Part shown: one piece after another, positions 2,413-26,953 of the stretch
How positions within the stretch are numbered: the first letter of the stretch is position 1
Layout: each line of letters opens with the position of its first letter
Origin: Candidatus Methanomethylicia archaeon
GTDB taxonomy: Archaea > Thermoproteota > Methanomethylicia > CALHIW01
DNA length: 27,634 bases
Assembly: GCA_038845975.1 (NCBI GenBank)
Contig: JAWBQF010000031.1
Span: forward strand, 1-27,634
Reading direction: 5' to 3'
Translations under genes and position numbers: made by a program
Notes under the pieces: model-generated
The model's database searches: none
Told to the model about the DNA's origin: nothing
Seen by the model: the letters and a program-made list of their open reading frames with translations, nothing else

Positions 2413-2462
2413 GGATCTGGCAACTTAAGAAGAAAGCTACAATATACTAAGTTGCCACGTCC
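2413..2462. mobile_element. 50-bp IS6-derived MITE, copy 1
   Basis: ggatctggcaactta...taagttgccacgtcc inverted ends; core shared with copies at 5611 and 10858; no convincing target-site duplication (TSD). Confidence 0.75.
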
Positions 2463-5610: not shown

Positions 5611-5660
5611 GGAGGTGGCAACCTGAGAAGGAGGTTACAATATGCTAAGTTACCAGGTCC
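5611..5660. mobile_element. 50-bp IS6-derived MITE, copy 2
   Basis: ggaggtggcaacctgag...ctaagttaccaggtcc, flanked by the 9-bp direct repeat atttatagc/atttacagc. Confidence 0.8.
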
Positions 5661-10018: not shown

Positions 10019-10229
10019 AGCTAAGTATAACTAATTATATTTAAAGTTTACTTTTCTATATTATCTATAATAAATGCTATACAGATAAGCTATATGGAAG
10101 ACGGCCCCAAGGCTGCTGTAATAGTATTGCTTTAGTCAACGTCTACAAATAGTGATCTATCATTTTAAGCCAGATGCTTTATCATGCAATGCTTATAAAA
10201 TGGTTACATAAATGTTTACAGTGATGTTT

Positions 10230-10480
10230 ATGGCTAAACAACAATAATACTTAGGGAAGACATTTACCAATCACTTAGAGCTGGCTAGAAACATTTCAAA
10301 CCTAATAAATAAAATTTTAATTGAGTATTTTGCAAGAGGAAAGCATGTTGGAACCATGAAACTAACTATGTTAGCAATTTAAGAGGCCATAGGGATCAAT
10401 TATGAGGTATGTCATCAACATACATTTAGATAGAGTATTTTATTGGAGCGAAAGCTAGGAAAAGCTAAACCCATTGAAGA
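10230..10480 (+). pseudogene. Degenerate vapBC pair
   Basis: Frameshifted TIILREDIYQ...RNISNLINKILIEYF antitoxin, followed by an MRYVI...IEYFIG...KAKP.IE toxin N-terminus resembling the intact vapC. Confidence 0.6.
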
Positions 10481-10789
10481 TGCTTGGTTAAGGTAAAGCT
10501 TCAGATAATAGGGCTTCAGCAAGACGATAAATGAACCTAGACTACTTTCAGCTAGGCTTCTCCTTCAAAGCAAGCCTCTCTAAATGGATAATCACTGTTA
10601 AACAAGCAAAACCTGGCCTCAACTAGCTTTGCAAGCATATAGACCTATCAACCTTTAAAATATCAACAATTCCTCCATTAACAAGATACATAAAGAAAAT
10701 AGCTAATTTATCCGAATTTAGCAAGAAGCTAGCACGCTATCTAAAGCGGTTAGGTGAGGATGTCAGTAATTAAAGCATTTGCCGGTAAT

Positions 10790-10848
10790 GATACTGTCAA
10801 GTAGCATATAGTAAGCTCATAGAATTTAAGGCTTAACTTGACAATATC
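10790..10848. mobile_element. 59-bp TIR mini-element (IS6-like ends)
   Basis: gatactgtcaagt ... acttgacaatatc (12/13 inverted); flanks gccggtaat / gttggtaac differ only by C/T transitions. Confidence 0.65.
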
Positions 10849-10857
10849 GTTGGTAAC

Positions 10858-10907
10858 GGACCCGGCAACTTAAGAAGAAGGCTACAATATGCTAAGTTGC
10901 CAAGTCC
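10858..10907. mobile_element. 50-bp IS6-derived MITE, copy 3
   Basis: ggacccggcaacttaag...ctaagttgccaagtcc; 8-bp TSD ttggtaac/tcggtaac; ends match the IS at 26320-26953. Confidence 0.85.
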
Positions 10908-10915
10908 TCGGTAAC

Positions 10916-10974
10916 GGCTCTATGAACTTTAGATATGGAAGTTTATATAGCTGATAACTTAAGTTCACAGAGCC
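10916..10974. mobile_element. 59-bp TIR mini-element (IS6-like ends)
   Basis: ggctctatgaactt ... aagttcacagagcc (13/14 inverted); right flank runs directly into truncated tnpB with no TSD. Confidence 0.75.
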
Positions 10975-12074
10975 GGGAGTGCTTAGATAAAGCCGTTACA
11001 GCAAATATAAGCTCAAGAAAAAGACTACATGAGGTAATCTACGGTAAACTAAGATTCAAATATCCTCATTATCTGTCACACTACATTTACACGGCTATAA
11101 CGCAGGCTTTGGCGATGTTCAAGTCGTATAGAAGGATGTCTAGGAAGAGGAAAGACATCAGCCTTCCAAGAATTGAAAACCTAAACACGATTCTCTTAGA
11201 TGATACTCATCTCTTCTGGTTTAGCTGGGGAAGCTTAAAGTTAGCCACGCATAAGGGACACATCACAATACCTTTCAACGTCCATGAATACTCGAAGAAG
11301 TTCTGCAGCTGGAGGGTTAAAGGCTCAAGGCTTGTGAAGAGGGGATGAATACTATCTTCACGTCTCCTTTAGGACAGTAGTTGGGGAGAGGAGGCATGAA
11401 GGTTTTCTCGGCGTAGATATCAATGAGAGAAGCATAGATTTAGCAGTCATAAAGCCAAGTAAAGTTAGGTTCATTAAAATCGATATGAGTGAAATGAAGT
11501 ACATCAGGGATAGGTATTTCAAAAAGAGGAGGATTATCCAAAGCAGAACCTTAGGAAAGGCTAAGCTACTAGTAAAGTATTCTGGAAGAGAGAAGAGGAG
11601 GGTTGACGATATACTCCATAAAGCAACGAAGGTAATAGCTAGCATTGTAGCTGAAGAAAAAGTTAAACCAGTCATGGAAAATTTGAAAATATCCGGCAAA
11701 GAATACGATATGGAAGAAAGATCAATAGGAGACTTCATAGATTACCTCACGTAGTCTTTTTCTTGAACTTATATTTGCTTACCGTTTAGAAAAACACAGT
11801 CATATATTTCATACAAAGTAACGGAGAAAGGGTTCAAACCAGAAACTGTTGAAGCGAAGAATACCTCTCAAACATGTCCGATATGTGGCGAGTTGAATAA
11901 GCCGAATGGACATGTCCTTAAATGCAAACGGTCGGCTTCCAAGCGGATAGGCATTTGATAGCCGCTTGGAACATAGCCGCAAAACTCCTCATGCGCCGTC
12001 CTTTACCGTTGGCGGCGAAAGCCATCTATGAAGCCTTTAAGGCAGAGGTGGAACAGATAGTTATAAAGTGTTAG
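10975..12074 (+). pseudogene. tnpB: IS200/IS605-family TnpB pseudogene (5'-truncated, frameshifted)
   Basis: RuvC I LGVDINE, RuvC II VMENL, zinc ribbon TSQTCPICG, RuvC III ADRHLIAAWNI; frameshifts near 11345, 11690, 11750 and 11930. Confidence 0.92.
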
Positions 12075-15399: not shown

Positions 15400-16130
15400 G
15401 GCTTTGTTAACTTAATCATGTTTTATCACCTCTATTTTGGTATTGTATCTTCTATGAATTCCTTAGCTTTTATTTTCCTGTTAATCCATGTTTGTTTAGT
15501 ATGTATGCTATTGACTTCATAAGCATTAATGCATGCTCATTACCGCATTTATCCTTCATGCATGGTATGTAGTTATCGAATAGCTTAGTTCTATCCTATA
15601 TACTGTATTATTCTCTCCATTAGATTCCTAACTTCTAAACTATACAATTCATATTTTAATTTTAATATTCTCATGATGCTTTATAATAATGAGCGCCATC
15701 ACTTAATACAACTATATTCCATAAATAGCTCTAATCTTCTTAAGGAATGTTAGAGATGTAAGCATGTTGCAACATCACAAACCCATATGTAGAGAATCCT
15801 CCTCAATAATGGCTCGAATGCAACATAAACAACCTTACTCTTAGAACCTACACTTATAATAGTATCATCAACCACAATCCTAACATCCCTCCTATCAAAT
15901 TCAAATAGGAAGCTTAAAGATCTAAACCACGATAATATAGAATAATTCCTAACAATAATGAAGCTTAGAATATCTGAAGCCATTCTAGATGAACATGAAC
16001 GAAAATATATATAAGCAATAAACAACTAGAGTAAATGGAGTTCTCTCCCTAACAAACTTAACAACTTTAACTATATTAACACCATAAATAGGGGAGAGAA
16101 CTCCCAAATAAATCTAAAGTTAACAAAGCC
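15400..16130 (-). mobile_element. IS6-family element type A, copy 1 (degenerate transposase)
   Basis: Perfect 14-bp TIR ggctttgttaactt; minus-strand IVVDDTIISVG...VYVAFEP DDE-like segment; homologous to 21626-22311; no TSD. Confidence 0.88.
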
Positions 16131-21625: not shown

Positions 21626-22311
21626 GGCTTTGTTAACTTAAGCATGTTTATCACCTCTATTTTGTTATTGTGTTTCTATGAATTCTTAGCTTTTATTTTC
21701 CTTATCCATGTTTGTTTAGTATTATATTATTGATTTTATAAGCATTAATACATTTTCACCATTACATCTATCCTTCATGCATGGTATATAATTATCAAAT
21801 ACTCTATCCTTAACATACTGTATTACTCCTCCATTAGATTCTAACCTCTAAACTATATAATGTTTTTTAATATTTTACATGATGCTTATAGTATTGAGCT
21901 CCATCACTTAATACAATTATATTCCATAGATGGTTTTAATCTTTTAATGTTAGGGATGTAAGTATATTTGAAACATCACAACTCACATATAGAGAATCCT
22001 CCTCAATAATGGCTCGAATGCAACATAAATAACCTTACTCTTAAAACCTACACTTACAATAGATCAACTATAATCCTAACATCTCTTTTATCAAATTCAA
22101 ATAGAAGCTTAAGATAAACCACGATAATATAGATACATAACCTAAAATAATAAAGCTTAAAATATCTAAGCCATTCTAGATGAATGGAAATATTAAGCAA
22201 TAAACAACTAGAGTAAATGGAGTTCCCTCCCTAACAAACCTAACAATTTTAACCATATTAACACCATAAATAGGGGGAGAACTCCCAAATAAATCTAAAG
22301 TTAACAAAGCC
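21626..22311 (-). mobile_element. IS6-family element type A, copy 2 (degenerate)
   Basis: Same 14-bp TIRs as 15400-16130; perfect 8-bp TSD aatctaca; many small deletions relative to copy 1. Confidence 0.92.
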
Positions 22312-26319: not shown

Positions 26320-26953
26320 GGACCCGACAACTTAAGTTTCACCTCCTTAAGTAGTTGTAGTATGTGAACATGTTGTAGATTAGTTCCAGCATACTATGCT
26401 CCTTCTCCACCTTATTCCTTGTTGTTTGGGTTTATCATTATGTTGTTGAAGAATGCTTGTTCTCCGTTAGAGATGAAAATACCGATTCCACAATACTTCT
26501 TCTCCGAATTGATGGTAATACCAATATTATTAATGCCTTTAAGTAATGGATATCCACTATTCGACTTTCCACTGCATAGTATTAATACTCGGCTAAGGAA
26601 TGATCTAGCCGAAAATGATCATGGATGAATCATCATACATACTATCTTGTCCCCCTCAACATCTAGATGAAATGTAGCTAATCCATTACCTTAACGTACA
26701 TATCATCAACAGCTATAAATCACCTAGGCTTAACATCCATGGATAGACAATCCATAACTTAACAACCCAAACATATTTCTTAAAACCTTCTTAGTGCCCT
26801 AGCATCCCTCCTAATACAATTGAACATAAAAGGATAAACAGAGAACCTTAAGCTCAAAGAAACCCTCTCAAATAAATGAAAACTCTCAACAACATCCCTC
26901 AAACATAAGATAAATAATAAAATACATAACTAAAACATTAAGTTGCAAAGTCC
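26320..26953 (-). mobile_element. IS6-family element type B (degenerate), putative parent of the 50-bp MITE
   Basis: TIR ggacccgacaacttaa / ttaagttgcaaagtcc; perfect 8-bp TSD ctaataac; fragments FELKVL, IAVDDMYVKV, RRSIVESVFSSL and FFNNI. Confidence 0.88.

Follow-up and report, generated by a model that had tools for sequence, protein, structure and literature searches.

Landmark-tethered integration is known from Ty3, which integrates at RNA polymerase III starts via TFIIIB, and from the Dictyostelium TRE elements, which integrate near tRNA genes. Among prokaryotic insertion sequences (ISs), the accessible part of a review of the IS6 family gives as criteria an 8-bp target duplication, a length of 700-890 bp, and inverted ends that are short, at 15-20 bp, and bear GG tips together with a cTGTt motif (PMC7986276). 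Moreover, the available portion of a further source describes how, in P-element dimers, R1, and dimers of some bacterial ISs, an element has inserted again into its regenerated target and the junction still contains the duplication (PMC5932611). The locus compared here with these systems lies in a 27,634-nt stretch of DNA (the window), which is contig C31 of a 2.77-Mb, 76-contig, 33.7% G+C, 93%-complete archaeal genome; C-numbers denote contigs of this assembly, G001 is a sister species, and G251 is a genome from another family of the phylum. At positions 10781-10974 of the window, three hairpin MITEs (miniature transposable elements with inverted repeats), U1, U2, and U3, are spaced by target copies in the order T1-U1-T2-U2-T3-U3, as read directly from the sequence. 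This three-unit stack at a reused target is confirmed as real, and we favour, with moderate confidence, its explanation as a fossil pile-up of three independent IS6-type MITE insertions into one 8/9-bp target that was reused by a promoter-distance rule.

A stack of three mobile elements at one target

The inverted-repeat arms of the three units are recovered independently by an inverted-repeat search, and the coordinates are collected in Table 1. As proposed by an earlier reading made from the sequence alone (the sequence-only reading), the spacers are copies of a single duplicated 8-9-bp target: T1 and T2 are identical at 6/9 positions, every mismatch being C/T, the last 8 bases of T2 match T3 at 7/8, and the spacers differ by C/T changes only, plus one additional base in T2. 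A fourth target copy is absent to the right of U3, where the sequence is CGGGAGTGC. With positions 10700-11400 as the query, the complete 194-bp block occurs a single time in its own genome and the units match separately at many places, dispersed and with their own duplications, which marks them as separate insertions and not one block. Hot-spring metagenome runs contain the window stretch, and the stack is not a misassembly, because contigs of three other studies span parts of it (X9 record 26, 10814-11054; X14 record 17, 10809-11068; X13 record 15, 10873-11189). No unit-skipping joint is seen in the contigs of four runs; contigs drop rare variants, so this is no evidence of absence.

The proposal that the units are IS6-type MITEs with parents is borne out by their families and by IS-sized elements with the same ends. 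Iterated nhmmer searches of the genome yield 10 copies of U1, 58 of U2, and 117 of U3, which become 10, 54, and 105 copies with refined full-length models after overlap removal. For U1, the parent is an IS-sized element of 707 bp with the same ends (C7:63587-64293); elements of 600-750 bp with U2-type ends are present in the genome; and the U3 ends are similar to those of a 726-bp IS6-type element (GGCTTTGTTAACTT) that gives 242 hits in the genome, with two copies in the window. The C7 parent carries a transposase remnant that matches PF13610 at 41.3 bits (cut-off 27) and NF033587, 'IS6 family transposase', at E 4.9e-15, and for the 726-bp IS, a 145-aa fragment hits NF033587 at E 2.2e-6 and, by BLASTP, the C7 remnant at E 2e-9, both remnants being fragments that score under the full-length curated cut-offs. 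A Pfam search with the 145-aa fragment gives no match, and the protein atlas offers a weak PF13610 lead only. The inverted ends of U1, U2, U3, and the IS have a common pattern, G[GA]NNCT[GA]NNAA[CG]TT. The cores, described in the sequence-only reading as unrelated, are not wholly so, for in the sister genome the core of U1 copies is matched by the U3 model.

The duplications are scored on complete copies as at least 7/8 identical flanking bases and compared with shuffled flank pairs. An 8-bp duplication flanks 22/42 copies of U2 (0.9% in shuffled pairs), 19/67 copies of U3 (0.8%), and 22/55 copies of the 726-bp IS (less than 1%). The U1-type duplication is 9 bp long; specifically, the C7 parent has AAACTACAT at both sides, and the G001 copies are alike. 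As regards the IS6 family, a DDE transposase of the IS6/IS240 type is represented by the remnants of the C7 parent and of the 726-bp IS, the 8-bp duplication is found with the IS, U2, and U3, the U1 type deviating with its 9 bp, and the 726-bp IS has the length and ends of the family (GGCTTTGTTAAC). Set beside the same end features, the U3 end is GGCTCTGTGAAC, the U2 end, GGACCTGGCAAC, fits in part, and the U1 end, GATACTATCAAG, has no GG tip. All three units are non-coding, have IS-type inverted ends and many dispersed copies with duplications, and possess IS-sized relatives with the same ends; on these features, they are best classed as IS6-type MITEs from three related families. The assignment of the hairpins to IS200/IS605 ends or REP-like elements was dropped after the 8-bp duplications and the IS6 parents were found.

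Three hairpin families unrelated to the IS6 types also occur in the genome, namely U4 (about 57 bp, ends GGGCTTTGAGAAGC, 22 copies, e.g., C19:2290-2348), U5 (about 56 bp, 8 copies, one of them inside the U1-type IS at C7, C7:63610-63665), and U6 (about 80 bp, ends TCTGAAAACTC, 37 copies, e.g., C11:28497-28586). They have no 8-9-bp duplications, are not promoter-adjacent, and are absent from stacks. In the duplication test, they score 0/20, 0/8, and 2/33, respectively (control 2%).

The transposase gene is broken in 65/65 near-full-length copies of the 726-bp IS, in which the longest open frame is 145 aa, and the copies diverge by 8-25%; an intact transposase gene is not found in the 93%-complete assembly. 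Within this assembly at least, the picture suggests an old burst that gave way to total decay, and the IS6-type system of the genome is a fossil.

Table 1. Coordinates of the stack, of other features of the window, and of three stacks on other contigs
Feature	Position	Strand	Remarks
T1, outer target copy, left 9-bp duplication of U1	10781..10789	.	GCCGGTAAT
U1, 59-bp hairpin MITE	10790..10848	+	ends GATACTGTCAAGT / ACTTGACAATATC
T2, middle target copy	10849..10857	.	GTTGGTAAC
U2, 50-bp hairpin MITE	10858..10907	+	ends GGACCCGGCAACTTA / TAAGTTGCCAAGTCC
T3, third target copy	10908..10915	.	TCGGTAAC
U3, 59-bp hairpin MITE, right end a rearrangement junction	10916..10974	+	ends GGCTCTATGAACTT / AAGTTCACAGAGCC
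Degraded IS607-type tnpB	10975..12074	+	without about the first 40 codons and tnpA; joined directly to the U3 end
U2 copy elsewhere in the window	2413..2462	+	promoter box 12-13 nt from the low-coordinate end
Further U2 copy in the window	5611..5660	+	from the family search
726-bp IS6-type IS	15400..16130	+	ends GGCTTTGTTAACTT; broken transposase gene on the minus strand
Second IS6-type IS copy	21626..22311	+	promoter box 13 nt from the high-coordinate end
634-bp element with U2-type inverted ends	26320..26953	.	candidate degraded parent of U2
Stack on C6	C6:49931		AGGATTTT present three times
Stack on C10	C10:33049		U3-U2-IS with GATAATAA
Stack on C3	C3:143299		U1-ATTTATAT-IS-ATTTATAT

To the left of the stack, about 760 bp (10019-10780) have no open frame of at least 40 aa on either strand; this is probably decayed sequence, in keeping with the window's numerous short, broken frames.

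Stacking and promoter distance across the genome

Facing complete termini are separated by gaps of 4 bp (two cases), 5 bp (one), 6 bp (one), 7 bp (one), 8 bp (seven), 9 bp (three), 10 bp (two), and 12 bp (one), with none at 13-48 bp, and a catalogue of 536 termini based on inverted ends only returns gaps of 6 bp (one), 7 bp (one), 8 bp (four), and 9 bp (one), the next being at 66 bp. When 411 IS6-type elements are relocated at random in 1000 placements, 0.31 pairs on average and at most 3 come to lie 6-10 bp apart, against 14 pairs observed in which the two termini are complete (19 in all). The 8-9-bp end-to-end spacing suspected in the sequence-only reading is therefore enriched genome-wide, and random targeting fails to explain the arrangement. 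That reading had also named three outcomes that would speak against it, and the opposite of each was found: the units have other copies and parents, the block is not a recurrent unit, and the spacing is enriched.

The 14 stacks are built from U1, U2, U3, and the IS, whose order and orientation vary, and U4-U6 take part in none of them. Within a stack, the spacer and the outer flanks are commonly copies of one sequence, and from stack to stack the spacers differ wholly (GATAATAA, AGGATTTT, ATTTATAT, CTATTAG, and others). The target logo of 65 good duplications contains at most 0.24 bit at every position, and the bias towards TAAC, or towards any other target sequence, that had been considered at the outset did not appear.

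What recurs in the flanks of the elements is the sequence ATAAAYTTTA, with the palindromic core TAAAnTTTA. Among 532 complete termini, the motif ATAAACTTTA (at most 2 mismatches) lies 13 nt away in 62, 12 nt away in 17, and 14 nt away in 21, and each of the remaining distances between 0 and 60 nt accounts for 1-7 termini. If each terminus is set by its inverted end, the peak narrows to one base for every type (IS, 49 at 13 nt; U3, 10 at 13 nt; U2, 4 at 13 nt; U1, 5 at 14 nt), and in all four types its distance equals the duplication length plus 5. At this exact place, the core is present at 6/8 positions or better in 35.8% of 321 termini versus 3.9% of 1605 control offsets; since the landmark is normally one-sided, this share points to a majority of elements being landmark-adjacent. 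Counted per element, the strict motif is found on at least one side of 27/55 copies of the IS, 20/67 of U3, 10/42 of U2, and 4/9 of U1 (61/173 in total) and in 0/61 elements of the unrelated U4, U5, and U6 families.

Upstream of 1422 long open reading frames (ORFs; at least 200 aa) of the genome, the same motif has its peak at 23-24 nt from the first ATG. A second, broader peak of the box TAAAGTTTAT upstream of these ORFs is located at 30-34 nt, and the two peaks suggest mostly leaderless transcripts together with a class with short leaders. An ORF of at least 50 aa pointing away from the element begins 20-34 nt past the motif in 49/99 cases, and 64 such element-adjacent ORFs fall into 63 clusters and therefore represent diverse host genes. 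By these positions, the TAAAnTTTA box is the general promoter motif of the genome, composed of the B recognition element (BRE) and the TATA box; the 8-bp target thus spans about -47 to -40 from the start, directly upstream of the BRE/TATA and 5 bp from the box. The positional rule itself, by which termini stand at a fixed promoter distance genome-wide, is highly probable.

Regarding the stacks, the strict box is found 12-13 nt from an outer terminus in 5/14 (19 evaluable outer termini), and the stacks at C10, C2:63054, and C4:50218 have weaker TATA-like boxes, scored by eye, at the 12-13-nt place. At C2:156535, which is the intergenic region between two diverging promoters, U2 has a U3 on both sides, the two U3 copies each being flanked by a duplication of their own and situated 13 nt from a box. 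The better duplication belongs to the promoter-side element in 7/8 comparisons, scored by eye (one-sided binomial 0.035), as targeting by a promoter landmark predicts.

Among 62 genomes of the class that were searched, the U1, U2, and U3 families are confined to the genus of the window. In the sister species G001, the motif lies 13-14 nt from the copy in 4-5 of 6 sampled loci, judged by eye. The left flank of the stack has no match in the sole same-genus genome, which is 62% complete, and a locus with 0, 1, or 2 units was not obtained. A PF13610 survey of 251 genomes of the phylum returns mostly long open frames, with a clean IS (inverted ends and duplications) in 1/30 loci. The view beyond the genus comes from a single genome, G251, in which a 716-bp IS6-like IS with 37 distinct termini shows an AT-rich peak of 0.69-0.72 versus about 0.48 at 19-27 nt, and no alignment column of the flanks of these 37 termini reaches 0.5 bit. 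At C41 of G251 (about 1451-1475), the 716-bp IS has a perfect 8-bp duplication, TAATCCAT, and a second IS6-like end, GGTACTGTCAAGTT, comes 9-10 nt after the IS, a stack-like neighbour beyond the genus.

Proposed origin of the stack and competing explanations

The families, the parents, the duplications, the spacing excess, the genome-wide promoter distance, and the junction at 10975 are the observations on which the proposed origin builds. In the scheme, the IS6 clade would select its target by position, through a staggered cut on 8 bases (9 for U1) located 5 bp upstream of the BRE/TATA, at a predicted position of about -40 from the transcription start. In archaeal promoters, -40 is near the upstream edge of the footprint of the TATA-binding protein (TBP) and transcription factor B (TFB). 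Starting from the arrangement X-T-N5-box-gene, a first insertion would produce X-T-A-T-N5-box, in which the promoter-side T is again at the proper distance, and the next arrival, from any family obeying the same rule, would produce X-T-A-T-B-T-N5-box, so that the youngest unit would be nearest the promoter. One site would be open to different families because what they have in common is the positional rule and not a sequence. We infer that the promoter rule caused the reuse at this locus, where the units may have arrived in such an order; the identities of 7/8 between T2 and T3 and of 6/9 between T1 and T2 are compatible with rightward growth.

The promoter side of this locus, to the right of U3, would have been replaced later, when an adjacent-deletion or recombination event at the U3 terminus fused U3 to tnpB at about codon 41 and deleted the fourth target copy. 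The present right flank is not the original one. Protein homology to the intact TnpB of C14 (ECLDKAV... versus ACLDRAI...) starts right at 10976, about codon 41, and contigs from two runs (X9 record 29 and X10 record 7) contain the intact upstream tnpB and part from the window precisely at 10975; tnpB is not continued in the sequence to the left of the stack. The right end of U3 is therefore a precise rearrangement junction without a duplication, and it hints at the signature expected of an IS6-type adjacent deletion or of recombination between two U3 copies. This junction explains why the fourth target copy is absent and, under the landmark model, why the promoter is absent as well. As for tnpB itself, C14:45-1821 carries an apparently intact IS607-type pair, with a serine-recombinase tnpA (208 aa) and a tnpB (393 aa) that is the sole paralogue of the window pseudogene in the genome. 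Inside the pseudogene, the 42-bp stretch 11000-11041 is repeated inverted at 11738-11779 with 95% identity, and contigs of two runs have an opposite-strand joint from 11041 to 11600, which together suggest an inversion or an alternative arrangement.

Several points weigh against this origin. At this locus, a promoter box is found on neither flank of the stack, so that the landmark explanation has to be carried over from other loci of the genome, and the U1 duplication is identical at only 6/9 positions. The strict motif occurs at only 5/19 evaluable outer stack termini, and since this share is about that of single elements, stacks are not specially promoter-associated; the stacks at C13, C15:1, C76, and C31 have no recognisable box. 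Moreover, the age ordering depends on a few bases per duplication, scored by eye, the promoter-side element at C6:49931 has the poorer duplication, and with 65/65 IS transposase genes broken, the assembly offers no active element. Lastly, selection against intragenic insertions could inflate the promoter association; it does not cause the peak, because a one-base peak with background at 15-60 nt needs more than a general upstream preference.

The rival that survives best is insertion directed by the resident end, in which a transposase seated at a resident inverted end steers the newcomer to the abutting 8-9 bases and leaves an ordinary duplication. We consider it rather unlikely, yet it must still be reckoned with, above all at this locus, which has lost the landmark. 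The spacing peak equals exactly one duplication length, some stacks (this one included) have no visible promoter box, and the related inverted ends of U1, U2, U3, and the IS make cross-recognition conceivable. Precedents are found in IS26, which attacks the IS-flank junction, and in IS911 and IS30, which insert beside inverted repeats, according to the accessible part of the IS6 review (PMC7986276), and the second IS6-like end 9-10 nt from the 716-bp IS of G251 (C41) is a similar case. Against it, the promoter rule accounts for most termini, and a rough estimate, in which about 100 insertions enter a few hundred strict-motif promoters, gives a number of double hits close to that of the stacks, so that no extra attraction to resident ends is needed. 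End-directed insertion also predicts either side equally, whereas the better duplication is on the promoter side in 7/8 comparisons, and IS26-type targeting, as described in the same portion of the review, requires identical ends and leaves no duplication (PMC7986276).

A sequence hotspot, with a GGTAAC-like 8-9-mer as a strongly preferred target in itself, is very improbable. Every duplication-forming transposon regenerates its target, and P-element dimers arise at the best consensus-matching sites, as far as the available text goes (PMC5932611); here, the hotspot is excluded because the targets carry almost no consensus (at most 0.24 bit per position in the logo of 65 elements) and the spacers of the 14 stacks are all unlike one another. 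Equally improbable is that the 194-bp block is one composite unit, a structured RNA or a BIME-like regulatory array, as three successive hairpins with regular short linkers might suggest, given that the block occurs once only and each unit alone many times with its own duplication, that other stacks mix the families in other orders and orientations and with full ISs, and that neither Rfam at gathering score nor a tRNA scan finds a match anywhere in the window.

Returning to the promoter-distance explanation, the cause of the reuse is most likely a positional landmark rather than a target sequence or the resident ends. Of the site- or end-directed pathway advanced in the sequence-only reading, the reuse of one target by different IS6-type elements stands, and an end-directed pathway is not required. 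How the landmark might act is a more tentative matter: a BRE/TATA bent and bound by TBP and TFB could position the transposition complex, a protein-mediated tethering that we regard as possible but doubtful, as opposed to a transposase that reads the motif or its shape directly. If this were true, prokaryotes would have, in a DDE transposon, a counterpart to the Ty3/TFIIIB type of tethering, with integration about 40 bp upstream of the transcription start, and every promoter would keep an ordered record of successive invasions by different families, of which the stack at 10781-10974 would be one example.

Relation to described systems

The sequence-only reading had raised the possibility of an undescribed arrangement. 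Part of this falls away, for P elements and some bacterial ISs are already on record as inserting repeatedly at a regenerated target, as the consulted portion of the source relates (PMC5932611). In the accessible parts of the literature covered, which includes PMC13343696, PMC6640164, PMC11602168, PMC6563490, and few subscription journals, fixed-distance IS6 promoter targeting is not reported, and neither are mixed archaeal MITE arrays sharing one duplication, a result that does not prove novelty. In short, the principle of stacking through repeated insertion is known, and the part for which no report was found is integration directed by promoter distance in an archaeal IS6 clade.

The choice of harmless sites has been worked out well in a few eukaryotic retroelements, hardly in prokaryotic ISs, and not in archaea. 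A distance rule accurate to one base makes this choice directly testable with purified TBP, TFB, and transposase. The rule would also explain why an element stands at about -40 of dozens of host promoters, which likely matters for upstream regulation, and mixed MITE arrays could be read as time-ordered insertion records. Moreover, the IS6 family would gain MITEs of 50-60 bp, where the available part of the review names two, of 227 and 336 bp (PMC7986276).

Compared with the REP/BIME arrays of bacteria (repetitive extragenic palindromic sequences and bacterial interspersed mosaic elements), the stack likewise consists of different short palindromic units in intergenic DNA; in the portion of the source at hand, the REPs go with Y1 (RAYT) transposases and lack 8-bp duplications, whereas the units here have DDE-type ends and duplications (PMC2817692). 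The presence of 8-9-bp duplications and IS6-type ends sets them apart from such arrays, the RAYT gene itself not having been searched for. The P-element tandem dimers, with the 8-bp duplication between their copies, and the R1 tandems are closer in principle, as in both, and likewise here, successive insertions enter the same target and leave a target copy in each junction; they differ in that they are dimers of one element at consensus-fitting sites in the accessible text, while three families share a landmark-distance site without a consensus at the present locus (PMC5932611).

The IS26 targeted conservative reaction and the insertions of IS911 and IS30 also place a newcomer directly beside a resident end, and in the part of the review that was available, these reactions need identical or cognate ends, IS26 leaving neither duplication nor spacer (PMC7986276). 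In contrast, the elements stacked here are heterologous, with a full duplication between them, and most insertions are beside promoters. The ends being heterologous and the spacer being one full duplication, the stack does not correspond to an IS26-type targeted conservative insertion.

With the IS6/IS26 family as a whole, as outlined in the same part of the review, the elements have in common the 8-bp duplication, a length of about 700-730 bp and DDE remnants matching IS6 models, inverted ends that are short and, in U3 and the 726-bp IS, bear GG tips and a (c)TGT(t) motif, and an adjacent rearrangement at an element end, that of U3 (PMC7986276). Unlike the family, the U1 type makes 9-bp duplications and begins with GATAC instead of GG, and fixed-distance promoter targeting is not described in that part of the review (PMC7986276), all IS copies here being dead. 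Finally, the elements resemble Ty3 and TRE in their fixed short distance to an initiation landmark, in their upstream placement at a safe haven, and in the repeated use of one site; those are eukaryotic retroelements with demonstrated protein tethering, whereas these are archaeal DDE elements of the IS6 type.

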